Of a stretch of 16,685 nt of DNA, positions 1 to 13,673 are shown one piece after another. Positions within the stretch are counted from its first letter, which is position 1. Each line of letters starts with the position of its first letter. The notes beneath the pieces were generated by a model that saw only the letters and a program-made list of their open reading frames with translations, did not search any database and was not told where the DNA came from. Location: UHGV virus genome UHGV-0121436; one strand, given 5' to 3'. The position numbers were made by a program, and so were the translations under genes. The DNA comes from a virus.

Positions 1-869
1 TGCGCCGCAAACGTATGGCGCAGAACGTGTGTCAGTTGACCGCGAGGGAGCACGATAGACGTTTTTTCCATCACGGATAAAAATTGAAAATAGCAGTCTG
101 TGAAGAAATTGAACCCATCGAGCGCCATGATCTCTTCGTAAAGCTCTTTACTGATAGGGATGCTTCTGTTTTTCTTCCCCTTCGTTCTGACAAAGGTAAT
201 TCGGTATTTGGTCACCTGTGAGCGGGTAAGGTTTATTGCTTCTCGCCAGCGTGCGCCTGTGCTTAAGCATATCTTGACTACCAGTGCCAGAATTGGGTCC
301 TGACGTTTGCAATCATCCAGCAGTTCAACAATCTGCTCATGGGTAAGCCATGCCATCTCTTTTTCTGCGATGGTGAATTTTCGCATGTTCTCCAGTGGGT
401 TTGGATACGACCATTCGCCCAGGCGGGATAGTTCGCTAAAAACACTACTTAGATAGCTTTGCTCCAGGTTAATGGTGACCGGGCTGGCCCCTTTCTTCCA
501 TTTCTCGCTGAAGTAGATCTCACCTGTCAGTCGTTTATCTCGATAATGGGCAAACATTTTAGATGTGAGATCGGTTGCAAGGGGATTGCCCAGAGCGTCA
601 ACCATCAGCAGCAATTTGTCATAGACATGCTGCCCAGCAGTCAGAGATTTACCATGTAGTTTGAACCATAGCTCAACCACGTCTTTCAGGGTTCGACGAT
701 CTACTGATTCGCCCAGCCAGGGCTTTGCTTCGGTTTCTTCCATCGTGTGACGCTCAAAAGCCAGTGCTTCGCCTTTGGTGGCGAATTGTTTACGCACACG
801 ACGCCCACTACGTCCGGCGGGGTAACATTCGCAAAGCCATTTTCCTGTGGTGAGTTTTCGTACTGCCAT
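1..869 (-). CDS. int: Tyrosine integrase, P2/186-like; 3' end lies beyond the window start (partial)
   Basis: Reverse-strand reading frame opens at ATG 869..867 and stays open to position 1 (about 289 codons), so the six-frame track did not report it. Translation begins MAVRKLTTGKWLCECYPAGRSGRRVRKQFATKGEALAFE and contains LSTGARWREA and HVLRHTFA, which match the conserved boxes of P2 Int as I recall them. GGAGG lies 9 nt upstream of the ATG. Confidence 0.85.
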   Translation of the reverse strand, partial: MAVRKLTTGKWLCECYPAGRSGRRVRKQFATKGEALAFERHTMEETEAKPWLGESVDRRTLKDVVELWFKLHGKSLTAGQHVYDKLLLMVDALGNPLATDLTSKMFAHYRDKRLTGEIYFSEKWKKGASPVTINLEQSYLSSVFSELSRLGEWSYPNPLENMRKFTIAEKEMAWLTHEQIVELLDDCKRQDPILALVVKICLSTGARWREAINLTRSQVTKYRITFVRTKGKKNRSIPISKELYEEIMALDGFNFFTDCYFQFLSVMEKTSIVLPRGQLTHVLRHTFAA

Positions 870-1030
870 AAAAAATGCCCTCCAATAGAGAGCATTTTTA
901 CTGTATGTATAACCAGTGTCAATGTATGAAATCTTGCGACCATACATCTCACTGAAGCCATAATGAAGTTGGCTATTTTTTGCTATGTGAGTATGTGACT
1001 TTTGCGGTTAGCCTGCGGCTCATTGTTATA

Positions 1031-1246
1031 TTAGGCGCAGATATAAAAGCAAAAATTATCGCGAGTTTTTAGTACAGATTTTTTTGATTTACTAATAGTT
1101 CCATCATTGCAAACGAACTTTCCATCGGAGGTACAGTGAGAGACACCTCCCTTTTTCCCAGAACAAGGATAATTTTTAGCATAGGTAGTTAGTGGGTTTA
1201 ATAACAAAGAGCATGATAAAACCACAAAAAATACCTTACCAAGCAT
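1031..1246 (-). CDS. Small secreted cysteine-containing protein (71 aa), unknown function; cargo between repressor and integrase
   Basis: ORF with strong RBS (GGGAGGAAACT) just upstream of ATG 1246. N-terminus [23 protein letters not shown] looks like a Sec signal peptide; the roughly 48-aa mature part has 5 Cys. AT-rich. It starts 16 nt downstream of the repressor stop, on the same strand. Confidence 0.5.
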
Positions 1247-1261
1247 AGTTTCCTCCCGGTA

Positions 1262-1831
1262 TTACCTAACGTACTTAATTGTTAAACTTATAATTTTTCC
1301 AATTATTTCAACATCTTCTATCTTGCACTCGAAGGATCTGTTTCCACCTTCAACGAAGATTCTTCCACCGGGTAAACGAGTAATGTCGCGGATTGTTATT
1401 TCGCCATCAATACTTATTACCCATTTACCATCACGTATATCATCAAATTCTTTATCACAAATAAATTCAGAATTGTTATCTGTGATGACAAAAGGTTTTT
1501 TAAACGTAGAGGGTAGAAATCCCTTATCAAAAATATAAAAACCGTCTTCACGCAAGGCACCATCAGATAATACATATTTAGCAACTTCCATCGTATTTGT
1601 ATTACCTGAAGTTTGCTTTGAACCATGTCCAGTTGTGAGCCAATTAAGCGAGGTGCCCGTTTCAAGGGCGCACTGGATTACCCATTCTGCTGGGAATGAG
1701 TCACGCATGTAGCGTGTGGCGAGTGTACTTTTAGAGATTCCTAAATGATCGCACAACGCCTGTCGAGTTTTGAATCCATAAGCTTCTACCATGCGCTCTA
1801 TAGCGCCTCGTCCGCCTTTCTCCAAATTCAT
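1262..1831 (-). CDS. cI: Phage immunity repressor (CI/C-like) with N-terminal HTH
   Basis: ORF on minus strand; ATG at 1831 preceded by GGAG at 5-nt spacing (the track's GTG at 1837 is an alternative start). N-terminal region ERMVEAYGFKTRQALCDHLGISKSTLATRYMRD is HTH-like and resembles the phage CI-repressor N-terminal domain. It is divergent from the early operon, as in P2/186. Confidence 0.8.
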   Translation of the reverse strand: MNLEKGGRGAIERMVEAYGFKTRQALCDHLGISKSTLATRYMRDSFPAEWVIQCALETGTSLNWLTTGHGSKQTSGNTNTMEVAKYVLSDGALREDGFYIFDKGFLPSTFKKPFVITDNNSEFICDKEFDDIRDGKWVISIDGEITIRDITRLPGGRIFVEGGNRSFECKIEDVEIIGKIISLTIKYVR

Positions 1832-1855
1832 GGTCACTCCAAGTGAACTTTTATC

Positions 1856-1884
1856 TTGACGATTTCATAGTGCGATCGTATGTT
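1856..1884 (+). promoter_or_regulatory. Candidate early lytic promoter (pR/Pe-like) in the repressor/early-operon switch region
   Basis: TTGACG (1856..1861), 17-nt spacer, TATGTT (1879..1884), located between the repressor start and the apl-like ORF and oriented rightward. Sequence pattern only. Confidence 0.35.
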
Positions 1885-1956
1885 TATGGTGTTCACAAAA
1901 TACAAACGATCCGTATTCGCCCTGATTAATCATCATTAAACGAGGAATGTTGCATC

Positions 1957-2115
1957 ATGAGACCTAACATTTCAATCACTCTTACCACGCCTCATGTGAC
2001 TATTGAACGCTATAGCGAGCTGACAGGGCTATCCATCGATACCATCAATGACATTTGGCTGATGGACGCCTTATCCGTCACCGTCTGCGCAAAGATAAAA
2101 AACGCGAAAAAGTGA
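1957..2115 (+). CDS. Apl/Cox-like small HTH protein (excisionase / repressor of lysogenic promoter), 52 aa as read; possibly frameshifted
   Basis: First ORF of the rightward operon: MRPNISITLTTPHVTIERYSELTGLSIDTINDIW..., with an HTH-like segment. Position matches P2 cox / 186 apl. Shorter than the roughly 87-91 aa I recall for those proteins; see the finding on a possible frame change. Confidence 0.5.
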   Translation: MRPNISITLTTPHVTIERYSELTGLSIDTINDIWLMDALSVTVCAKIKNAKK

Positions 2116-2209
2116 TGATCAACATAGCAGCCATGACCGTTGATGCGCTTTCAGAATGCAATCTAAACCTTAATTAGTTCGATTCTGAAATACATCAGAG
2201 GCATTGACC

Positions 2210-2719
2210 ATGTTTGATTACCAAGTTTCCAAACATCCACATTTTGATGAAGCCTGTCGTGCATTCGCATTGCGCCACAACCTGGTGCAACTGGCAGAAC
2301 GTGCTGGCATGAATGTGCAGATTCTGCGGAACAAGCTGAACCCAGCTCAGCCTCATTTATTAACCGCACCAGAAATCTGGCTGCTTACCGATCTGACTGA
2401 AGATTCAACGCTGGTAGATGGTTTTCTGGCACAGATTCACTGCCTGCCATGTGTACCGATTAATGAGGTGGCAAAAGAGAAACTGCCACATTACGTCATG
2501 AGTGCAACCGCAGAGATCGGGCGTGTTGCTGCAGGTGCGGTATCTGGCGATGTAAAAACCAGTGCAGGTCGTCGTGATGCTATCAGCAGCATTAACTCTG
2601 TAACACGACTGATGGCGCTGGCTGCTGTTTCATTGCAGGCCCGTTTACAGGCTAATCCTGCGATGGCGAGTGCAGTTGATACCGTGACTGGCCTCGGTGC
2701 TTCATTCGGTTTGCTGTGA
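2210..2719 (+). CDS. cII: CII-like lysogeny-establishment transcriptional activator (186 CII-like), 169 aa
   Basis: ATG 2210 with AGAGG 9 nt upstream. Translation [24 protein letters not shown]...[25 protein letters not shown] closely resembles what I recall of coliphage 186 CII (same length class, same N-terminal motif). Second gene of the early operon. Confidence 0.7.
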
Positions 2720-3533: not shown

Positions 3534-3760
3534 TGGCTGATGCAATGGATCTCGTACAGCAGCGCGTTGAAGAAGAACGCCAGCGCCATATTCGTGCTGC
3601 CCGTGCCAAAACACCGGGCGTGTCTCGCGTGCTTTGTATTGAATGTGAAGCGCCAATTCCGCCAGCACGACGCCGCGCCATTCCGGGAGTGCAGCTTTGC
3701 ATTACCTGCCAGGAAATCGCAGAGCTGAAAGGCAAACATTACAACGGAGGTGCTGTATGA
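3533..3760 (+). CDS. TraR/DksA-family C4 zinc-finger protein (P2 orf82-like)
   Basis: 75-aa product with CIECEAPIP...(18 aa)...CITCQ, a four-cysteine zinc-finger arrangement typical of phage TraR/DksA-like proteins. Translationally coupled to the flanking genes. Confidence 0.75.
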   Translation: MADAMDLVQQRVEEERQRHIRAARAKTPGVSRVLCIECEAPIPPARRRAIPGVQLCITCQEIAELKGKHYNGGAV

Positions 3761-4614
3761 GCACCATCCTGAAATGGGCGGGAAATAAAACCGCCATTAT
3801 GTCCGAACTGAAAAAACACCTTCCTGCTGGCCCGCGACTGGTTGAACCTTTCGCGGGTTCCTGTGCTGTGATGATGGAGACGGATTACCCCAGCTATCTG
3901 GTTGCGGATATTAATCCTGATTTAATCAACCTCTATAAAAAGGTTGCCGCTGATTGTGAATCGTTTATATCTCGCGCCAGAGTTTTATTTGAGATCGCAA
4001 ACAGGGAGGTGGCTTATTACAACATAAGGCAGGAGTTTAATTACTCCACTGAAATTACTGATTTCATGAAAGCGGTATATTTCCTGTATCTCAATCGTCA
4101 CGGTTACCGTGGTTTATGTCGCTATAACAAGAGCGGGCATTTCAACATTCCCTACGGTAATTATAAAAATCCGTATTTCCCTGAAAAAGAAATTCGCGCA
4201 TTTGCAGAAAAGGCCCAGCGAGCAACGTTTATCTGCGCCAGCTTTGATGAAACGCTGGCGATGTTGAAGGCGGGGGATGTGGTGTATTGCGATCCGCCGT
4301 ATGACGGTACGTTTTCCGGCTATCACACTGACGGCTTCACTGAAGATGACCAGTATCACCTGGCATCTGTTCTTGAACATCGGTCATCAGAAGGACATCC
4401 GGTCATTGTTTCTAACAGTGACACATCCCTGATCCGTTCGCTGTATCGCAATTTTACTCACCACTACATCAAGGCAAAACGCAGCATCGGTGTGGCAGCT
4501 GGCGAGGGTAAATCAGCAACAGAAATCATTGCTGTTTCCGGGCCGCGCTGCTGGGTGGGATTTGATTATTCGCGTGGCGTGGATAGTTCTGCCGTGTACG
4601 GAGTACGTGCATGA
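3757..4614 (+). CDS. dam: DNA adenine methyltransferase, D12 class (Dam-like, probably GATC-specific)
   Basis: ATG 3757 with GGAGG upstream; start overlaps the preceding stop (ATGA). Translation has [16 protein letters not shown] (SAM-binding motif I-like), [17 protein letters not shown] and the catalytic DPPY motif (VVYCDPPY). Strong resemblance throughout to E. coli Dam as I recall it. Confidence 0.85.
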
Positions 4615-7025
4615 GTCATGCCGATATGAACAACTGCTGCGGCTTTAACGAGGCTGCCGCAGCATTCTCATGGAACAGCCCGAAAAAGGCCATTAACCCT
4701 TATCTGGACCCGGCGGAAGTTGCGCCGGTTTCTACGCTTTCAAACCTGATCACTCTGTACGCTGCCGATAACGAGCAGGAACAACTGCGCCGCGAGGCAC
4801 TGAGTGATCAGGTCTGGGAGCGTTATTTCTTTAATGAATCACGTGATCCTGTCCAGCGCGAAATGGAGCAGGATAAGCTCATTAGCCGGGCAAAGCTGGC
4901 GCATGAGCAGCAGCGTTTTAATTCAGACATGGTCATTCTGGCGGACGTCAACGCCCAGCCTTCCCATATCAGCAAGCCGCTGATGCAACGTATTGAATAC
5001 TTCAGCAGCCTGGGCAGGCCAAAGGCTTATTCCCGCTATTTACGTGAGACGATTAAGCCATGTCTGGAACGACTGGAGCATGTACGCGACAGTCAGCTAT
5101 CTGCATCTTTTCGCTTTATGGCAAGCCATGAAGGGCTGGACGGCCTGCTGATCCTGCCTGAAATGAGTCAGGATCAGGTGAAACGCCTGTCCACCCTGGT
5201 AGCTGCGCATATGAGTATGTGCCTTGATGCAGCTTGTGGTGATTTGTATGCCACCGATGACGTTAAGCCAGAAGAAATCCGCAAGACATGGGAAAAGGTG
5301 GCAGCGGAAACCCTGCGTCTGGATGTCATCCCACCTGCGTTTGAGCAACTCCGTCGGAAAAGAAACCGCCGTAAACCCGTGCCCTATGAACTCATTCCGG
5401 GTTCGCTGGCGCGTATGTTGTGCGCCGACTGGTGGTATCGGAAATTATGGAAGATGCGTTGCGAATGGCGGGAAGAGCAGTTGCGCGCTGTTTGCCTGGT
5501 CAGCAAAAAAGCATCTCCTTATGTCAGCTATGAAGCCGTGATGCATAAACGTGAGCAGCGCCGTAAGTCGCTGGAGTTTTTCCGTTCTCATGAACTGGTG
5601 AACGAAGACGGCGACACGCTGGACATGGAGGATGTGGTAAACGCCAGCAGCAGCAACCCTGCGCATCGCCGCAATGAGATGATGGCCTGTGTTAAAGGTC
5701 TGGAGCTTATCGCGGAAATGCGCGGTGACTGCGCCGTTTTCTACACTATCACCTGTCCGTCGCGTTTCCATTCCACGCTAAATAACGGCAGGCCAAACCC
5801 GACCTGGACAAACGCGACGGTAAGACAAAGCAGCGATTATCTGGTCGGCATGTTTGCTGCATTTCGTAAGGCGATGCACAAAGCCGGGTTGCGCTGGTAT
5901 GGCGTGCGGGTGGCTGAGCCGCATCATGATGGCACAGTTCACTGGCACCTGTTGTGTTTCATGCGCAAAAAAGACCGCCGTGCCATCACTGCATTACTGC
6001 GTAAGTTTGCCATCCGTGAAGACCGCGAGGAGCTGGGCAATAACACTGGGCCGCGCTTTAAGTCTGAGTTGATTAACCCGCGCAAAGGAACGCCGACAAG
6101 CTACATCGCGAAATATATCAGTAAGAACATTGACGGTCGTGGTCTGGCTGGCGAGATCAGCAAGGAAACGGGTAAATCTCTGCGTGATAACGCTGAATAC
6201 GTGAATGCCTGGGCGTCTCTGCATCGTGTTCAGCAATTCCGCTTCTTTGGTATTCCGGGGCGTCAGGCTTACCGTGAACTTCGCTTGCTGGCTGGTCAGG
6301 CGGCAAGGCAGCAGGGTGACAAAAAAGCAGGTGTGCCGGTACTGGATAACCCGCGTCTTGATGCCATTCTGGCTGCTGCTGATGCTGGTTGTTTTGCCAC
6401 CTACATCATGAAGCAGGGCGGCGTACTGGTTCCCCGTAAATATCACCTCATCAGAACCGCTTATGAAATCAACGAAGAGCCGACCGCCTATGGCGATCAC
6501 GGCATTCGTATTTATGGCATCTGGTCACCCATTGCAGAGGGCAAGATCTGCACTCATGCAGTGAAGTGGAAAATGGTTCGTAAGGCCGTTGACGTTCAGG
6601 AGGCGGCAGCCGACCAGGGCGCTTGCGCCCCTTGGACTCGTGGCAATAACTGTCCCCTTGCTGAAAATTTGTACCAACAAGGGAAAGACAAATCAGCTGA
6701 TGGGGATACCAGAACGGATATCACCCGCATGGATGACAAGGAATTGCACGATTACCTGCACAGTATGAACAAAAAAGAGCGCCGGGAACTGGCTGCAAGG
6801 TTACGCCTGGTGAAACCGAAACGGCGTAGAGACTACAAACAGCGAATTACAGATCATCAGCGACAGCAGCTCGTCTATGAACTGAAGTCCAGAGGATTTG
6901 ATGGCAGCGAGAAAGAGGTCGATTTACTCCTTCGCGGCGGCAGCATTCCGTCAGGAGCAGGCCTGCGTATTTTCTATCGGAACCAGCGTTTGCAGGAAGA
7001 TGATAAGTGGCGGAACCTGTATTAA
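4611..7025 (+). CDS. A: Replication initiation protein A (rolling-circle nicking endonuclease, P2 gpA-like), 804 aa
   Basis: Large ORF whose start overlaps the dam stop. Contains a histidine-rich [11 protein letters not shown] segment (HUH-type metal site) and [12 protein letters not shown] (candidate catalytic Tyr region). Size and position match P2/186 gene A. Confidence 0.9.
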
Positions 7026-7119
7026 TTACGCGGGTTAACAATTCGTGCTCTTAATAATACCAGGTATATCAGGCTGATGAACGTAAAAAAACGTTTTACA
7101 TCAGTAAGATTATTATATA

Positions 7120-7135
7120 CTGTAAATATAAACAG
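7120..7135. promoter_or_regulatory. LexA (SOS) operator, perfect CTGT-N8-ACAG
   Basis: CTGTAAATATAAACAG at 7120..7135 matches the LexA box consensus CTGT-(AT-rich N8)-ACAG. It lies in an AT-rich promoter-like stretch 44 nt upstream of the ORF starting at 7179. Confidence 0.6.
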
Positions 7136-7178
7136 TGGTTATGCGTACAGTATTGCTTGTGGTGTCATAGGAGGAAAG

Positions 7179-7367
7179 ATGCAGGACTATTTTTTGGAGT
7201 CTTTGAAGCTCCAGCGCATTGATTTTTTTCTTAAGCTTGTAGCGGCTAGTGAGTGTAGTGATGAAGAGAAGGGGCTGGCCCTGCAGTGGGTTTCTGAACT
7301 GACAGATGAACTCATGGCAAAAATCAGAACCCACGAATACAACCGCTCAATGGATGTCATCAGCTGA
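7179..7367 (+). CDS. Small protein (62 aa) in the LexA-controlled module; possible Tum-like antirepressor N-terminal part
   Basis: ATG 7179 preceded by AGGAGGAAAG. Acidic, helical-looking product MQDYFLESLKLQRIDFFLKLVAASECSDEEKGLALQWVSELTDELMAKIRTHEYNRSMDVIS. Sits directly upstream of the DinI-like ORF. Confidence 0.45.
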   Translation: MQDYFLESLKLQRIDFFLKLVAASECSDEEKGLALQWVSELTDELMAKIRTHEYNRSMDVIS

Positions 7368-7377
7368 GGTGACTTTT

Positions 7378-7611
7378 ATGCGCATTGAAATAATGATCGA
7401 TAAAGAGCAGAAGATTAGCCAGTCTACCCTGGACGCCCTTGAATCCGAGCTTTACCGCAATCTGCGCCCCCTGTATCCCAAAACGGTAATTCGCATTCGC
7501 AAAGGTAGCTCTAACGGTGTGGAACTGACCGGACTGCAACTGGACGAAGAAAGGAAGCAAGTGATGAAAATTATGCAGAAGGTGTGGGAAGACGACAGCT
7601 GGCTGCATTAA
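7378..7611 (+). CDS. DinI-family protein (77 aa); Tum/DinI-like SOS-regulated modulator
   Basis: MRIEIMIDKEQKISQSTLDALESELYRNLRPLYPKTVIRIRKGSSNGVELTGLQLDEERKQVMKIMQKVWEDDSWLH aligns by eye with E. coli DinI (MRIEVTI..., DAL..EL, W..D.W C-terminus). GAGG RBS 8 nt upstream. Confidence 0.7.
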   Translation: MRIEIMIDKEQKISQSTLDALESELYRNLRPLYPKTVIRIRKGSSNGVELTGLQLDEERKQVMKIMQKVWEDDSWLH

Positions 7612-7682
7612 GAAACGTTGCCCCCAAGAGGATTCATTCTGATGGGGGACTATTTTGGGCAACGAGTGAAACGAGGCGTTAG

Positions 7683-7720
7683 GTGGACGGCCATTTTGAT
7701 AAGTGATCGTCCGCTTTTTG
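7683..7720 (+). terminator. Possible intrinsic terminator after the DinI-like gene
   Basis: GTGGACG (7683..7689) pairs with CGTCCGC (7708..7714), one G-U pair, followed by TTTTT (7715..7719). The loop is large (18 nt), so this is weak. Confidence 0.3.
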
Positions 7721-7898
7721 TTCTGAGTTCAAGCGATGGATTTAACACACTGGTTGAAGCAGAAGTATCTAAGTTCAATTTATATTATTTGAAGGGCACT
7801 GGTCTGATGTAGTACGATTTTTGCCGGAGATGGCATGTTCTATATTGATCTCATCCATATAATGATTGGTATTATTAGCTTAGTTTAAAGAGGATTGA

Positions 7899-9476
7899 AT
7901 GGATATCAACTATGTTGTTTCAAAAATGGGGTTCGTAGATGATCTTATTAATGCAGGTTCATTTGATTCTGCCTATAAAAATGTAAAGGATATTCTTAAC
8001 GGTATCGATGAGATAAATACAATCAAAGAAAATAGAATAATTATATTATCTAATTTGGCCGGAAATCTTATTGATATCGGAAGTTTTAGTAATGTAAAAA
8101 ATATAGCGGAGGAAGGCTTAAATATCTTTATAAACAATAAAAATGAATTTCTGACTATAATGAAAGAATCCTTATATTACTATAACTTGGCAAATGGAAT
8201 GAGCGCAGTTCTTGATTTTAATCCTAATGACAATGCAGATATTGATAGTTTCATTAAGCTGAATGATGTAAAAAATAATTACTGGAAAGCGTTTAAACTT
8301 TCACAAGAAGATGGATGGGTGCCCCCTGATTTAATAGTTAATCTAGCTAATGTATTAAAAAAACAATATCGTATATCTGAATCAATGGATTATTATGAAC
8401 AAGCAATATCTATTGATAACTCAATTCCTCAGGCGTGGGTAAACAGATCTGAGGCATTAGAATTGCTTAATGAATTATCTACAACATATACATATAAAAT
8501 GATTAAAGAAGTTATTCGAGGTTATGAGTGTGCAATAAAGTCAGGGAAATGTTTTCCTTCATGGAAGGTTGCTCTTCAAAGAAAAATAAAGTACAACGAA
8601 AGTATATTGAGTGAATCATGTGTATATGGCATAGAGGATATAAGTACAGATGAAAGGCTCACGCAGGAGGAGTATGATACTTTATCAAACTACCAGAGGT
8701 TTTGTATAGATAATAATCTAATGTTGTCTGATCATTCGCTATATTGCAATTGTTATGCGTCATCTAAAGATAATATAACTATTGCTACCACCGAGGAAGG
8801 TGTGTTTGGTGATTTTATAGTGCCAATGGAAATGGTGTTAAATAGACTTAAAGCAGAGTATTCCTTAGCACGAAAAATGTTTTTTGAATATAAGGTTGAT
8901 AGTGAGTTTTTTGATGAGGATTCGGAGGTATGTTATTCTGAATTGTATAATGGAGAAATATTGTATGAAAATGTTGAGAAGTTAAGGGTTGCATTTAGAG
9001 CTTGCTTTGGTATCTTGGATAAAATAGCAGTTGCTCTGTGTCAATTATTTGATTTAAAACCAGATAGAGGACATATATACTTTCATAACTTCTGGCGGAT
9101 TAGTGATGAAAAAAGAAAGCTTAAAATAAACAAAATAAATAATAAAGGATTGCTGGGTTTGTTTAGTATTGCTATGGATTTGAATGATAAAAATGGTGAG
9201 CTTGCTTTTTTTAAAGAATGGAGGAATGATTTAGAACATAAACTGTTAGTTATTCACGAGAAAGACATGTTAGTTGATTTATATAATTCTTATGGATTTT
9301 TTGATGAGGTGAGATTTATTGAGAAAGAAAAGTTTGAGAAACAGCTCTTACAACTCATGAAAATTGTGAGATCAGCCGTTATTCTTTTTGTGTTTACCAT
9401 ACGTATAGAGGGGAAAAAAAGTATTCCTAAAGATATGTTGACCATTAAAAATACCATCGAGAGAAAAGTATTGTAG
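7899..9476 (+). CDS. AT-rich 525-aa protein with N-terminal TPR-like helical repeats and C-terminal HEPN-like region; candidate anti-phage / abortive-infection effector
   Basis: Uninterrupted ORF with AGAGGA RBS before ATG 7899. Visibly much lower GC than the flanking phage genes (by eye; not computed). TPR-like segment around YYEQAISIDNSIPQAWVNRSEALELLNEL. C-terminal R-x4-H (RNDLEH, nt 9222..9239) and R-x5-H (RGHIYFH) fit the HEPN R-x4-6-H signature. No Walker A motif seen. Located in the P2 tin/old-equivalent position. Confidence 0.75.
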   Translation: MDINYVVSKMGFVDDLINAGSFDSAYKNVKDILNGIDEINTIKENRIIILSNLAGNLIDIGSFSNVKNIAEEGLNIFINNKNEFLTIMKESLYYYNLANGMSAVLDFNPNDNADIDSFIKLNDVKNNYWKAFKLSQEDGWVPPDLIVNLANVLKKQYRISESMDYYEQAISIDNSIPQAWVNRSEALELLNELSTTYTYKMIKEVIRGYECAIKSGKCFPSWKVALQRKIKYNESILSESCVYGIEDISTDERLTQEEYDTLSNYQRFCIDNNLMLSDHSLYCNCYASSKDNITIATTEEGVFGDFIVPMEMVLNRLKAEYSLARKMFFEYKVDSEFFDEDSEVCYSELYNGEILYENVEKLRVAFRACFGILDKIAVALCQLFDLKPDRGHIYFHNFWRISDEKRKLKINKINNKGLLGLFSIAMDLNDKNGELAFFKEWRNDLEHKLLVIHEKDMLVDLYNSYGFFDEVRFIEKEKFEKQLLQLMKIVRSAVILFVFTIRIEGKKSIPKDMLTIKNTIERKVL

Positions 9477-9798
9477 TATATTTTCATCGAGCGATGAAAC
9501 GGTCTGTTTTTCTTTATAGTTTTGTCATAAAAAAGAGATTTCCTGCTTAAAATTTGGCTATTACAGAGCAACTATGTATGTTCCTCGCTCACAGTAGAGC
9601 TTCATCTTTGTAAGTCTGTATGTTTCGTTTTTCAAGTGGTCATTCAGATACGGACTTTCACTTCTCTTAGACAGTGCATGACTATGCTGCATGAAATCGC
9701 ATGATCGTTTAAGGATCGTTTTTGCTAAGGCTCGCCAGAACTAGCGGGCTTTTACGTAGAACATGCAGGTGCATGAAAACCACTACATAAAGCGGGCA

Positions 9799-9817
9799 GG
9801 CGTGGCGGGGATACGAG
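9799..9817. other. Probable cos site (cohesive-end sequence of P2/186-type phage)
   Basis: GGCGTGGCGGGGATACGAG: the first 12 nt match the 19-nt cohesive end I recall for 186 (GGCGTGGCGGGGAAAGCAT) and it is close to that of P2 (GGCGAGGCGGGGAAAGCAC). It lies upstream of the portal gene 3' end, as expected, in a GC-rich non-coding patch. Confidence 0.45.
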
Positions 9818-10030
9818 CGCGCGCAAAGGGGTTAAATGGCAAAAATCCGGCGCAATCTTCTGCTCGCTGTCGGCTTTAATTGGTGAGGGGGAGGGAATAG
9901 GCGCAAAAAAGAAATGCCCCGCAGAATGCGATCTATACACGCAGAATCGCGGATAACTCTTAAGCTATGATTGACGTACAATTTTACAGGAAGTATTAAA
10001 GTCTCATGTTCATTTTTTCAGGATGATGAC

Positions 10031-10807
10031 ATGTTAGCTGGTACGCGAAGTGCGACGAACGGAAAGGTTTTTGCTAAAGACTGCGAAAAAGAAGAAGGGC
10101 CATTTTTTTGCATTGGATGCAAAAAAGAATTGGTTTTAAAGAAGGGGCGAATTAAAGTTCATCACTTCGCCCATAAGCCCCCGTTTTCTTGCAACAGAGG
10201 TCATGGGGAGACTGAAAAACACCGAGAATGCAAAGAATCTATGTATAACTTGTTGCTTTCAATGCCGAATGTTAGAGATGTTGACATAGAGCATGATCTT
10301 GGTAGTGCTGTAGCTGATGTGTATGCTGTGATAAACAATGTTCCAGTCGCTATTGAAGTACAACGCAGCATTCTTTCCGTAAATGAAATAACAAGACGCA
10401 CCAAAGAATATCATCGTTTAGGTGTACATGTGCTTTGGCTTTCACTGTTCAGCACGCGACTTGTAGAAGATCGCTTTAGCCCATCAGCGTGGGAAAAGTG
10501 GTGTCATGCTACCTATTATGGCAGGGTATATTATTGGCTTTCTGGATTGGATGTGATCCCATATCATTTTTCTGACTATAAATTATATGTTGAAGAAAGT
10601 ACATGGTACGAGTCGGGTGGAAATGAGAGAAGCGCAGGTGGATACTATAAATTTTCAAAACGTTATAAAACGCCACTCGCTGGGCAAAGAGTAAATATAG
10701 CGGAAGACTTTTCGCCTAAAAGAAAAGCAGCATGGAATAGTAAGACTATTTATATACCAGAATGTAGTATTTATTTGGATGGACAGTCAGCGTGGTGGAG
10801 TAAATAA
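10031..10807 (+). CDS. CoiA-like protein (putative PD-(D/E)xK-type nuclease with N-terminal Cys/His cluster), 258 aa
   Basis: ATG 10031 (the track's TTG at 9971 is less likely). Translation has CIGCKKELVLKKGRIKVHHFAHKPPFSC, GETEKHRECKE, ADVYAVINNVPVAIEVQRSILSVNEITRRTKEYHRLGVHVLWL. This order of motifs (C-x2-C...HFAH...GE-x3-H...ADV...AIE-x-Q-x-S...LG-x-VLW) is what I recall for the competence protein CoiA family. Moderately AT-rich; lies between cos and the portal gene. Confidence 0.7.
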   Translation: MLAGTRSATNGKVFAKDCEKEEGPFFCIGCKKELVLKKGRIKVHHFAHKPPFSCNRGHGETEKHRECKESMYNLLLSMPNVRDVDIEHDLGSAVADVYAVINNVPVAIEVQRSILSVNEITRRTKEYHRLGVHVLWLSLFSTRLVEDRFSPSAWEKWCHATYYGRVYYWLSGLDVIPYHFSDYKLYVEESTWYESGGNERSAGGYYKFSKRYKTPLAGQRVNIAEDFSPKRKAAWNSKTIYIPECSIYLDGQSAWWSK

Positions 10808-10814
10808 GAATTGT

Positions 10815-10858
10815 TAATATAAATTCAGCAGCAATTGCTGCTGCATTTATTATATTAA
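10815..10858. terminator. Bidirectional intrinsic terminator between the convergent CoiA-like and portal genes
   Basis: Perfect 18-nt palindrome CAGCAGCAATTGCTGCTG (10826..10843) flanked by A/T-rich runs on both sides. It sits exactly between the stop of the plus-strand ORF (10807) and the stop of the minus-strand portal gene (10855). Confidence 0.55.
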
Positions 10859-11910
10859 CCGTTGTGCTTGTCTTCTGTCAGTCCCAGCGTGTACGGTTCA
10901 AAGCGGATCACTTCTTCGCCCAGCCACTCGTTAAGCTCCTGTAGTCGCTTCTGCAGCGGCATCAGCTCGTTGCGGACAAAGACGCGGCTGGCCTTTTCTA
11001 CATCACCAAAGCCGCCGGTATTGTTGGGAATAATGCCCATCATTTGTGGTGGCACGCGGTGTGCTGCCATCATGTCATCGCGGCTGACATTTTTGATATT
11101 CAGAAATTCATCCTTCGCCGCAACTTCTGACAGAGGAATGATCTGAAGCCCGTCCTTTTTGCCGTTAGGCGAGTACATAAACAGATTGCGGAAGTTGCCA
11201 GGGCCTTTGGCGCTTTTCATCGCATTGCGGAGGTTGTTCACATCCTCCTGGTTTTGCGCGGCATCGGTCATGTACATGATAAAGCCCGCATGACTGCCGT
11301 TAATGTAATATTTGCGTCGGAACAGCGTGGCGGACTCGTTGAGCAGGGCTGACGGAATGGCAGAAAGATAACCGGGCAGGCCGTAAATCTCCTGGTTGAT
11401 ATCCGGTTCCATCAGATGAAAAATGCTGCCTTTCGTGAACTGATACGGCTGGGTTGTCATACCGTATTGCACAAACCAGTAGGTATCCAGGTCTAACCCG
11501 CGTCGGGTGTATTTTGCCAGCGCAGGCTCAAGGGCGATAACTTCACCGAAGCGGTTCGTGCGTTTCTCCAGGTAGGCGTTACCAAATACCAGGTAGTCCT
11601 GCACAAAACGTGAAAAAGCCTGCTGGCTGAGCAGCGGGTGAGGGATATAGGTACTGGTCAGAATGTTGCACTTTACTGCAATCGGGGAACTGTGATGCAC
11701 GGCAGCGCGGAAGGTGCGCGCCAGTCCGTCAAAGCTGACGGGCGGCTCATACCAACGGTCCATCTGTACGCATTCCACATAGTCCAGTAATTCTCGGCGG
11801 TCCAGAACAGGAACGGGATCGCCGAAGCTGAATGCTTCGGCTGTAGTTTGACTTTTAAGCTGGATCTGATTCGTCGCCGCAGCGCGGTTCTTCTTACTCT
11901 TTCCCATCAA
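10855..11910 (-). CDS. Q: Portal protein (P2 gpQ-like), 351 aa
   Basis: Minus-strand ORF starting MMGKSKKNRAAATNQ...; size, position next to cos and adjacency to the terminase ATPase gene match P2 Q. Its start overlaps the stop of gene P (ATGA). Confidence 0.88.
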   Translation of the reverse strand: MMGKSKKNRAAATNQIQLKSQTTAEAFSFGDPVPVLDRRELLDYVECVQMDRWYEPPVSFDGLARTFRAAVHHSSPIAVKCNILTSTYIPHPLLSQQAFSRFVQDYLVFGNAYLEKRTNRFGEVIALEPALAKYTRRGLDLDTYWFVQYGMTTQPYQFTKGSIFHLMEPDINQEIYGLPGYLSAIPSALLNESATLFRRKYYINGSHAGFIMYMTDAAQNQEDVNNLRNAMKSAKGPGNFRNLFMYSPNGKKDGLQIIPLSEVAAKDEFLNIKNVSRDDMMAAHRVPPQMMGIIPNNTGGFGDVEKASRVFVRNELMPLQKRLQELNEWLGEEVIRFEPYTLGLTEDKHNG

Positions 11911-13673
11911 AAAATCTCCACAATATTGCTGGCATTGGCGGATTCGCCCTGCAGCGGTTCGTTAAACAGTGCGTGCATCGTTGCCCAGGCCAGATCGGCG
12001 TGGCTGGCTTCTTCGCTGCGGCTGGCTTCATAGGTCGGGCGGTTGCCGCTGGCGGTGGTAGCGCGACGGATTGCCATAAATGATTGCGCAATGTCGGTGT
12101 GCCCGGCGTCAAACTCCAGACGGCGGTGGCTGATAATGTCGTAGGCCTTGAGCACCAGGGCGTTTTTAACGTTGGGGTTGTAGACAAACTCCCGGACGGC
12201 AGGAAAGAATGCTTTCACGTTCTCGTAAACCCCGTGACCAACGCCGGTTGAGTCGATACCGATATAAGTCACGTTGTACTGTTCGGTCAGTTTTTTGATG
12301 GCGTCAGCCTGGGCGCGGAAGTCCATCCCGCGCCACTGGTGACGCTCAAGAATGCGGAATTTACCGCCCGGTACGGCTGGCGGTGCCACCACCACGCATC
12401 CGGCACTGTCGCCGTTCTGAGTACCTTTTGCGGGGTCATAACCGATCCATACTTCGCGCCAGCCAAACGGGCGCAGGGCCAGTGCATGAAAGTCGGTCCA
12501 GACTTCCCAACTGTCCACCATGCACGCCTGCAGTTCGCTGAGCGGGAACACGGACGCGAGATCGTCCACGAACTCACACATCAGCAGGTTCTGGTATTCG
12601 TCCGGGCTGTATTCCATGCGCAACTGGTCAAGGTCGAACAGGTTACAGCCGCCGCGCACCGCATCTTCCACGGTGACTATCTGGCGGTATTGTCCGTCTG
12701 CGCACAGCAGGCCGGGGGCCAGATTGCTGTGGGACAGGTCGATGTCCACCTTATCGGCTTTGTTGCGCCCACGGTTGAACAGCGCACCGGACCAGAACGG
12801 ATAAGCACTGTGTGTCAGGCTGGATGGCGTGGAAAAATAGGTCTGTCGCCATTTTTTGTGAATAGCCATACCGGAAGCCACTTTGCGCAGCTCCTGGAAT
12901 TTCGGTATCCAGAAATATTCATCCAGATACAGGTTGCCGTGATAACTCTGGGCCGTGCGGGCATTGGTGCCGAGGAAGTAAAGCGTGGCCCCGTTAGGAA
13001 GCACCATCGGATCGCCTTTCAGCTCCACCTCCACTTCTTTGGCGAAGTCGATGATGTACTGCTTAAAGACGTGGGCCTGTGCCTTGCTGGCGGAAAGGAA
13101 AATCTGGTTACGTCCGGTAAGCAGAGCGTCAATCAGGGCTTCACGGGCAAAGTAAAAGGTCGCGCCGATCTGGCGTGACTTCAGCAGGTTGCGGATGCGG
13201 TTGGTTTTTCCGGCTTCCCACCAGTGGCGCTGGTAGTTGAACATGAAGGAATGGAAGATTTCTTCCAGCTTCTCAATCTGCTCATCGGTGAAAACATTCT
13301 TTTCCGGCTGACGGCGCGGGCCTTTGTTGCGGTTGGCGACGTTAGGGTTTAAGTCGGCTTCGTTGCCGCCATTGTTAAACTTGCCGATCCGCGCGTGGCG
13401 TTCCGACTGGCGCGCCAGCAGGTCAATCTCTTTGAAATCTTTCCCTTCTTTGTGCTCCTTCATAATGAGCTGGCAGTAGCGTGCGGCGGTGGTGAGCTGC
13501 ATCTGATCCAGCGGCCCATAGTCACCCCACTTGTCGCGTTTTTTCCAGCTGTGAACGGTTGCAACTTTCTCGCCCAGCATTTCAGCAATGCGGGCTACGC
13601 GGTATCCCTGAAAGTACAGCAGCATGGCCTGCCGACGGGGATCGAGATCTGCGGGTGTCAGTGTGGTGTTCAT
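11907..13673 (-). CDS. P: Terminase large (ATPase) subunit (P2 gpP-like), 588 aa
   Basis: Long minus-strand ORF, divergent from the O-N-M-L cluster across a 142-bp intergenic region, as in P2. Length and organisation fit gpP. Confidence 0.88.
   Translation of the reverse strand: MNTTLTPADLDPRRQAMLLYFQGYRVARIAEMLGEKVATVHSWKKRDKWGDYGPLDQMQLTTAARYCQLIMKEHKEGKDFKEIDLLARQSERHARIGKFNNGGNEADLNPNVANRNKGPRRQPEKNVFTDEQIEKLEEIFHSFMFNYQRHWWEAGKTNRIRNLLKSRQIGATFYFAREALIDALLTGRNQIFLSASKAQAHVFKQYIIDFAKEVEVELKGDPMVLPNGATLYFLGTNARTAQSYHGNLYLDEYFWIPKFQELRKVASGMAIHKKWRQTYFSTPSSLTHSAYPFWSGALFNRGRNKADKVDIDLSHSNLAPGLLCADGQYRQIVTVEDAVRGGCNLFDLDQLRMEYSPDEYQNLLMCEFVDDLASVFPLSELQACMVDSWEVWTDFHALALRPFGWREVWIGYDPAKGTQNGDSAGCVVVAPPAVPGGKFRILERHQWRGMDFRAQADAIKKLTEQYNVTYIGIDSTGVGHGVYENVKAFFPAVREFVYNPNVKNALVLKAYDIISHRRLEFDAGHTDIAQSFMAIRRATTASGNRPTYEASRSEEASHADLAWATMHALFNEPLQGESANASNIVEIF

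Follow-up and report, generated by a model that had tools for sequence, protein, structure and literature searches.

The 16,685-nucleotide (nt) viral sequence UHGV-0121436, called the window here, carries an AT-rich gene for a protein of 525 amino acids (aa), set among genes that are assigned to a P2/186-like prophage. What is this gene, and what might it do for the prophage that carries it? An earlier note, made from the letters of the sequence, had read it as a TPR-like and HEPN-like open reading frame (ORF) that could form a single-gene anti-phage system and that could not be placed in a named family, being possibly undescribed. The gene proved to be placeable: its product matches the Pfam family PF18733, the family has been known since 2013, and the accession of the identical RefSeq protein, WP_000354145.1, stands in a table of Rousset et al. 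2022. It is best regarded as a member of a known family at a catalogued position, for which we infer an anti-phage role from sequence and context; as an anti-phage gene it appears to be a credible candidate. The reading favoured here, which we hold to be likely though by no means assured, is anti-phage defence by trigger-activated RNA cleavage. Coordinates of the features are collected in Table 1.

The product is almost certainly an LA2681-family TPR-HEPN protein. The Pfam search that the earlier note had proposed matched aa 309-504 to PF18733 (HEPN_LA2681; E=1.8e-38; 132.4 bits against a cut-off of 27; profile positions 9-204 of 204) and, under the gathering cut-offs, one TPR repeat (TPR_10/8/2; aa 145-174; E 1e-3 to 7e-3); the RefSeq name of the identical protein is likewise LA2681-like HEPN. 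The LA2681 HEPN family was described by Anantharaman et al. 2013 as "fused to TPR", with Rx4-6H marked as conserved, and this description is a computational one. The window protein is a member with a full-length match to the family hidden Markov model (HMM) and the same architecture. The Rx4-6H motif required of the HEPN superfamily is supplied by R442-x4-H447. When 34 full-length homologues of 38-84% identity were aligned, R442, N443, E446 and H447 proved invariant, and RNxxEH was present in 12/12 further genomes checked, ranging from Psychrobacter to Bacteroidota. These invariant residues and the PF18733 match bear out the proposal that RNDLEH is the HEPN signature. RGHIYFH (aa 390-396, R-x5-H), offered as another such signature, is present in the protein, but R390 and H396 are not conserved across the 34 homologues and its candidacy as a second active-site element was rejected. 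Shuffled sequences hold 0.52 R-x4-6-H matches on average and the protein holds two; because this is near chance, the motif evidence lies in the conservation and not in the pattern.

An AlphaFold2 model was built with the homologue alignment (predicted local distance difference test score, pLDDT, 86.5; predicted template modelling score, pTM, 0.88). Foldseek with the full model returned TPR proteins only (OGT TPR, consensus TPR and MamA, probability 1.0), which is why a separate model of the C-terminal part was made and searched; its closest structural matches were HepT toxins, at moderate similarity. The long helices of the modelled HEPN domain span aa 307-334, 357-384, 404-429, 436-447 and 476-507, with a beta-hairpin insert at 449-475. 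The HEPN assignment is drawn from the family HMM and the invariant motif, with which the fold evidence is consistent, not decisive. A HEPN domain could also serve as an inert scaffold, that is, as a ligand- or protein-binding adaptor without RNase activity; several HEPN families are listed as non-catalytic in Table 1 of Anantharaman et al. 2013, and the only moderate structural similarity would suit this explanation as well. However, LA2681 is one of the families for which that table records a conserved Rx4-6H, and the invariance of R, N, E and H in very distant homologues is the pattern of active HEPN RNases. The scaffold explanation is accordingly held to be very unlikely, and the protein is quite probably an active RNase.

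The earlier note had given the N-terminal two-thirds of the protein to TPR repeats. The TPR-like character stands and the extent does not, the predicted alpha-solenoid covering 47% of the protein before giving way to a linker. Besides the Foldseek matches, the family profile (positions 127-196) matched consensus-TPR and OGT chains of the PDB (E 1.6e-15 to 1e-10), so that profile matches and the predicted model agree on TPR repeats lying N-terminal to HEPN, as in the LA2681 family. Identity to distant homologues is 32% in the N-terminal domain versus 50% in the HEPN domain, and the faster divergence of the former fits a sensor or regulatory role. No Walker A motif is present in the protein and no ATPase, Toprim or NTPase-domain match was obtained from Pfam, in line with the view that it is not an Old-type ATPase. 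The linker between the two domains is mostly coil (block-mean pLDDT 77-93 across aa 261-310), and S277, H279, Y282, C283, C285 and D291 are invariant in the alignment and present in most further genomes checked. H279, C283 and C285 (H-x3-C-x-C) together with C369 are invariant, and C345 and C381 nearly so, among the homologues of 38-84% identity; as a speculation, the linker Cys/His residues and C369 might together bind a structural metal (Zn) and so tie the linker to the HEPN domain.

The gene travels as a moron cassette complete in itself, which occupies the cargo hotspot next to cos in a P2/186-like prophage. Its guanine-plus-cytosine (GC) content is 0.307 (0.267 at third codon positions, GC3), against 0.514 in the rest of the window, 0.53 in gpA and 0.53-0.57 in the portal and terminase genes, which agrees with the compositional foreignness noted before; the ribosome-binding site (RBS) attributed to it was also found, as AAGAGGA. 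Three Yersinia enterocolitica loci (L009-L011) share with the window exactly 7818..9604, at 85.6% identity, and nothing else (blastn), and the limits of the cassette were set because these islands match that segment only. None of the three Yersinia loci is a P2 prophage; they are integrative islands, and AlpA, primase, AAA_25 and AbiEii were found on one of them. The cassette thus moves solo between unrelated mobile elements, and its recurrence with differing flanks upholds the description of the gene as a stand-alone unit. It was found in 11 of 5,426 complete E. coli genomes, at 99.4% identity or more and on the chromosome in every case. The gene is likewise solo in a Pseudomonas locus (neighbours PAAR-Ntox44, integrase and transposase), a Vibrio locus (Mrr_cat, Cap4 nuclease and PIN_12), a Cellvibrio mobile element (relaxase, AbiEii, Fic, HigBA-like genes and ArdA), an Enterobacter locus (between an MFS transporter and DinB) and a Pantoea locus (near an orphan Hcp). 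In E. coli ECONIH5 (L019, 3600-5141) the gene is annotated as a shortened coding sequence (CDS) of 1542 nt and the DNA match is one base short; a frameshift cutting the C-terminal end, i.e. occasional gene decay, is likely for this copy.

The gene's own promoter is putatively placed within the 81 nt that travel upstream of it. Promoter-like elements can be read there (TATAAT at 7858-7863; TTGATC at 7845-7850 with TATTAT at 7870-7875). A consensus promoter scan gave no site of at least 9/12 within 7818..7898, and its match counts were not above those of shuffled sequences. Downstream of the gene a terminator scan found none that was convincing, the hairpin immediately 3' of the stop codon being unremarkable (z = -0.74), and the sole match of an Rfam scan of 7400-10900 was a sub-threshold, chance one to mir-15.

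A lone mobile gene for a HEPN protein may also be read as a selfish toxin or competition module, stabilising the prophage by post-segregational killing or interfering with P4-like satellites and plasmids. HEPN domains are common toxins of toxin-antitoxin (TA) systems, the closest structural matches are HepT toxins, the gene is always on mobile or variable DNA in Enterobacterales, and P2 hotspots have been proposed to take part in inter-viral competition (Rousset et al. 2022). On the other hand, no antitoxin candidate, MNT domain or conserved small neighbour accompanies it, the flanks differ in every context examined and the cassette holds this gene alone. We consider this explanation improbable, and it would still require trigger-dependent control, because a toxin that stands alone and is always active could not be kept.

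Placement of the gene between gpA/DinI and cos, as the earlier note had it, follows from the cos-like block at 9649-9929 that succeeds it. Nowhere else in 7600-10000 did the DNA match sequenced P2-like phages; the block matches Fels-2 and Klebsiella P2-like phages and prophages (87-88% identity), in which it is unannotated, and a cos-like sequence, GGCGTGGCGGGGATACGAG, lies inside it at 9799-9817. Among the clones of Rousset et al. 2022, the reverse complement of GGCGTGGCGGGGATACGAG adjoins hotspot cargo in clone pFR109, in the place that P2 cos takes in clone pFD239. The exact P2 cos 19-mer was not found, even allowing 3 mismatches, and cos was placed by homology to the 186/Fels-2-type region. 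The gpA-gpQ interval is a defence hotspot in which 18,150 loci showed 1,650 arrangements, and HEPN_LA2681 / WP_000354145 is listed repeatedly in the hotspot table (Table S5A according to the main text), with DinI, and AAA_15/21, KAP_NTPase or hypothetical genes, as neighbours (Rousset et al. 2022). That entry has the same accession, locus and flanking DinI and hypothetical genes as the window, and it corroborates the proposal that the gene is cargo of the gpA-cos hotspot.

Window positions 7001..9824 recur at 100% identity in E. coli EC100, which diverges just beyond the cos-like sequence (blastn), and in all four E. coli copies inspected (EC100, ST130, M8 and ECONIH5) the cassette follows a hypothetical-DinI pair. 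The slot across cos is occupied by a 554-aa hypothetical protein in EC100, AIPR in ST130, PIN in M8, a small hypothetical protein in ECONIH5 and a CoiA_N/CoiA_nuc protein in the window; other occupants in E. coli are KAP NTPase and AAA_15/21 genes. Because the cross-cos gene varies among copies, the two slots assort independently and the HEPN gene is independent of its neighbour. This bears directly on the idea that the gene is half of a two-gene system, inactive alone, with the CoiA-like ORF or another partner. Both genes are indeed low-GC cargo in the gpA-gpQ interval, and an enterobacterial subfamily 41-47% identical to the window protein has a conserved 1356-aa gene abutting upstream. But cos separates the two genes of the window, the identity with EC100 stops at 9824, beyond which EC100 has a different gene, and in other E. 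coli copies the partner is AIPR, PIN or a hypothetical gene of small size. Moreover, the Yersinia cassette comprises the HEPN gene only, and the CoiA-like segment occurs in 1 other of the 5,426 complete E. coli genomes, which lacks the HEPN gene and is not among its 11 carriers. With cos between, varying partners and no co-occurrence in the complete E. coli genomes, pairing with the CoiA-like neighbour was rejected, and a two-gene system of any kind is very improbable for the window gene.

The subfamily with the 1356-aa gene was found in Citrobacter, Moellerella, Pantoea, Rahnella and Phytobacter (L026, L027, L030, L032, with the gene at 5882-9949/9970 on the plus strand, L068 and L012/L013). 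The 1356-aa gene gives a faint N-terminal P-loop signal (AAA_22/AAA_16, E ~0.002-0.004) and carries DUF8371 in precomputed annotation; with it, this LA2681 subfamily possibly forms a distinct two-gene system. The CoiA-like ORF of the window matched CoiA_N (E 6e-12) and a CoiA nuclease-like domain (E 2e-10), with no significant PADLOC or PHROG match and no NCBIfam family, and it may be an independent nuclease-type defence candidate.

The family is large. When 1.84 billion cluster representatives (50% identity) were searched exhaustively with phmmer, at least 121 clusters reached E<=1e-30, a count that grew to 379 at E<=1e-10, and most of the best 150 representatives were ~500-550 aa long and matched end to end. 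A pattern-seeded scan with one genome per species gave 69 loci, and the taxa include Gammaproteobacteria, Campylobacterota, Bacteroidota, Ignavibacteria, Desulfobacterota and others, a scattered occurrence of the kind typical of horizontal transfer. Plasmids held only 6 distant family members (24-27% identity). The neighbourhoods were surveyed descriptively, with no matched control, from 139 crude ORFs (ATG starts only) within 4.5 kb of 19 diverse homologues. Housekeeping genes predominated; there were 3 integrases and a few matches to defence models (a DpdE/ZorD-like helicase, AbiTii, AriA-like ATPases and OloB).

The most interesting new lead is an rtcB-HEPN-rtcA arrangement in Moraxellaceae. 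In seven Psychrobacter species, two Acinetobacter species and one gammaproteobacterial metagenome-assembled genome (MAG) a homologue lies between rtcB and rtcA on the same strand, with rtcR divergent (L040, L041, L042, L043-L047, L050 and L073). These homologues are 36-38% identical to the window protein and keep RNxLEH intact. The intergenic gaps in Psychrobacter L044 (Table 1) are 96 nt between rtcB and the homologue and 144 nt between the homologue and rtcA. Both rtc genes are supported by Pfam (rtcB, PF01139, E=1.7e-131; rtcA, PF01137, up to E=3.7e-76). Two Chitinophagaceae loci (L071 and L066) have rtcB ~1.4 kb downstream of the homologue, confirmed by Pfam in L071. RtcB is ~76% identical between the Psychrobacter reference and the Acinetobacter and MAG sequences, and this implies that the embedding has been retained for long. 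RtcR responds to 5' tRNA halves ending in 2',3'-cyclic phosphate, which activate it, and a part in tRNA repair is ascribed to the Rtc operon (PMC7790460); 2',3'-cyclic-phosphate ends are the products of metal-independent RNases such as HEPN (PMC9879122). The embedding therefore supports RNA cleavage as the family chemistry and hints at tRNA as a substrate, and it suggests a functional link between the LA2681 RNase family and the repair of RNA ends with 2',3'-cyclic phosphate.

The same arrangement is the best ground for reading the protein as an RNase of RNA damage or stress, in which regulated cleavage of tRNA or rRNA is coupled to Rtc repair and the prophage copy modulates host physiology (growth arrest, or persistence at SOS induction). 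Besides the embedding in Psychrobacter, Acinetobacter and the MAG, with the long retention implied by RtcB, the proximity of rtcB in the two Chitinophagaceae loci and the many distant homologues amid housekeeping genes speak for it. Yet the window copy and its close relatives are foreign AT-rich cassettes in a prophage defence hotspot and in islands with Abi and TA genes, the Rtc linkage probably represents one or two evolutionary events among homologues of 36-38% identity, and RNA repair beside an RNase is also compatible with a logic of defence and recovery. A stress role for the window gene is on the whole unlikely.

We return to defence by a latent RNase. The lysogen would express the protein from the gene's own promoter, and the TPR domain would keep the single HEPN domain inactive, probably monomeric or occluded, while sensing a protein or peptide cue associated with infection. 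Active sites of HEPN RNases such as Cas13, Csm6, HepT and PrrC need two HEPN domains, and their products carry 2',3'-cyclic phosphate. A protein with one HEPN domain must therefore dimerise: upon triggering, two HEPN domains would pair into a composite Rx4H active site and cleave RNA independently of metal to give ends with 2',3'-cyclic phosphate and 5'-OH. The RNA cut would most likely be tRNA or some other RNA of the translation machinery. Protein synthesis would then halt and the superinfecting phage be aborted or delayed, so that the lysogen population, and hence the prophage, would be protected. The defence role is supported because the other occupants of the gpA-gpQ hotspot are defence genes, because the Vibrio, Cellvibrio and Yersinia loci have defence or toxin neighbours, and because the homologues between rtcB and rtcA point to RNA-end chemistry. 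An E. coli family member also scores highly in DefensePredictor (Science 2026; PMC13092281 Table S10): WP_244588239.1 is listed as "Predicted novel defense gene" with a log-odds of 9.1, the suggested cut-off being 4 as given by the authors of a 2026 paper in Nucleic Acids Research. At 335 aa, WP_244588239.1 may be a truncated copy or a shorter paralogue relative to the 525-aa protein. The exact window protein and six family motifs were absent from the portions of the DefensePredictor supplements covered, and WP_244588239.1 and the family motifs were not among the cloned and validated systems in the covered portion of Table S6 part 1.

Several results weigh against a defence role. For at least one lineage the homologues embedded among rtc genes point to a function in housekeeping or stress, and with mostly housekeeping neighbours at the 19 loci surveyed, enrichment in defence islands is not general for the family. 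The earlier note had made residence in defence islands or phage hotspots a mark of defence; this holds for the P2 hotspot and does not hold consistently for distant homologues in defence islands. A tblastn search of 50,697 sequenced phage records gave no match. For the ORF itself PHROGs offered no family, and neither did NCBIfam; PADLOC-DB v2.0.0, a check suggested at the outset, gave no significant model among known or candidate defences (generic TPR, E 3.5e-4; Csx1/Csm6, E 0.074). In the literature covered, only the 2013 paper on the family and no experiment on any member were found, and neither WP_000354145 nor "LA2681" was among the cloned systems in the covered portion of Table S2 of Rousset et al. 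2022. Two of their clones, "Putative HEPN" (pFR103, from E. coli S88) and "HEPN-TPR" (pFR83, from a P4 locus), begin with different sequences, and pFR83 showed no BLASTP similarity to the window protein (best E 2.1).

The proposed design can be compared with known systems. PrrC is kept silent by its regulatory domain until a phage cue arrives. PrrC and RloC are similar to the window protein in joining a latent HEPN RNase to an N-terminal regulatory domain, and their RNA-repair counterpart is echoed by the Rtc linkage of LA2681; their regulator, however, is an ABC-type ATPase tied to restriction-modification, whereas that of the window protein is an NTPase-free TPR solenoid. HepT-MntA differs in that a stand-alone toxin of ~130 aa is neutralised by an adjacent MNT nucleotidyltransferase; the window HEPN domain is larger than HepT (~200 aa), has the beta-hairpin insert and is fused to TPR, and no MNT domain of the kind found in type II/VII HEPN-MNT TA systems was present among the neighbours in any context examined. 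AbiD/AbiF, AbiJ, AbiU2, AbiV, ApeA and the CBS-HEPN protein DS-11 of DefensePredictor resemble it in combining a HEPN effector with a regulatory or sensor domain in one protein, and the table of Anantharaman et al. 2013 records a link between AbiU2 and Sel1 (TPR-like) repeat proteins; unlike these single-gene systems, the window protein has no significant PADLOC model. Old and Tin of P2 occupy the same place relative to gpA and cos and share the moron-like AT-rich character. Old, however, is an ABC-type ATPase (Walker A) with Toprim, neither of which is in the window protein, and Tin shows no similarity to it (best BLASTP E 0.044 over 51 aa), as the difference in size had led the earlier note to expect. 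STAND/Avs proteins have a central STAND NTPase that separates the effector from the TPR sensor, whereas the window protein has no NTPase or P-loop and is only 525 aa long.

Table 1. Features of the window and of the Psychrobacter rtc locus L044 (the last four lines, in positions of that locus)
Feature	Position	Strand	Remarks
CDS of LA2681-family TPR-HEPN protein	7899..9476	+	525 aa; ATG start; identical to RefSeq WP_000354145.1
RBS AAGAGGA	7888-7894	+	4 nt ahead of ATG; clear by direct reading
AT-rich mobile cassette	7818..9604	+	1.79 kb: gene, 81 nt upstream and 128 nt downstream; GC 0.310
Upstream region travelling with the gene	7818..7898	+	putative own promoter and RBS
N-terminal TPR-like alpha-solenoid	7899..8633	+	aa 1 to ~245; 12 helices, ~6 hairpins; AlphaFold2 model
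Single TPR repeat of canonical signature	8331..8432	+	aa 145-178; VNLANxLKxQYRISEaxxYYeqAi
Conserved linker	8682..8816	+	aa 262-306; LSxHxLYCxC...DN; H279-C285 = nt 8733-8753
HEPN domain	8817..9419	+	aa 307-507
Predicted catalytic motif R442-N-D-L-E-H447 (Rx4H)	9222..9239	+	aa 442-447; at the end of helix 436-447
186-type CI repressor	1262..1837	-	
D12 Dam methylase	3697..4614		
gpA replication endonuclease	4611..7025		upstream of the gene; PF05840, E=1.4e-127
DinI-like gene	within 7306..7611		upstream of the gene
64-aa TTG-start ORF	7618..7812	+	between DinI-like gene and cassette
Conserved non-coding cos region	9649..9929 (approx.)		right boundary of the cargo slot
CoiA-like nuclease ORF, 278 aa	9971..10807	+	between cos and portal; GC 0.40
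Portal	10855..11910	-	downstream of the gene
Terminase	11907..13673	-	downstream of the gene
rtcR (L044)	7166-8383	-	
rtcB (L044)	8678-9904	+	
Homologue (L044)	10001-11509	+	
rtcA (L044)	11653-12483	+	

Some further features of the window deserve mention. Neither Pfam nor PHROG matched the small ORF that separates the DinI-like gene from the cassette, the RefSeq copies leave it unannotated, and this stretch is probably a non-coding spacer; the DinI operon may be terminated by a hairpin with a T-run around 7683-7720, noticed by eye only. A low-GC stretch at ~750..2250 (0.35-0.43) over the lysogeny region makes a second compositionally distinct module of the prophage, within which lie the 186-type CI repressor and a small ORF. 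This ORF, at 1031..1246 on the minus strand, matches in position the YdcA-family gene annotated in E. coli EC100.

If defence is confirmed, a compact 1.6-kb single-gene RNase system would join the arsenal of E. coli prophages, and a first function would be given to a family of at least 121 clusters (50% identity, E<=1e-30). Since both the family with its architecture and its occurrence in the P2 hotspot are on record and abortive infection by HEPN proteins is a well-known theme, such a result would be plausible rather than surprising. A TPR sensor joined to a HEPN effector without an NTPase would, if true, offer a minimal model for the gating of a HEPN nuclease by a repeat domain, and through the embedding in the rtc operon a connection of immune RNases with RNA repair becomes open to test. 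A bolder and decidedly tentative version would see in LA2681 TPR-HEPN proteins a distinct, widespread single-gene immune family, in which TPR directly recognises a phage protein, HEPN cuts tRNA or other translation RNA to give 2',3'-cyclic-phosphate ends, the damage is deliberately fed into sensing and repair by the host Rtc system (RtcR/RtcB/RtcA), and the outcome is a reversible growth arrest and not suicide. Such Rtc-coupled immunity, if true, would explain both the fixation of the gene between rtcB and rtcA in Moraxellaceae and its solo shuttling among enterobacterial prophages, islands and single-gene insertions.

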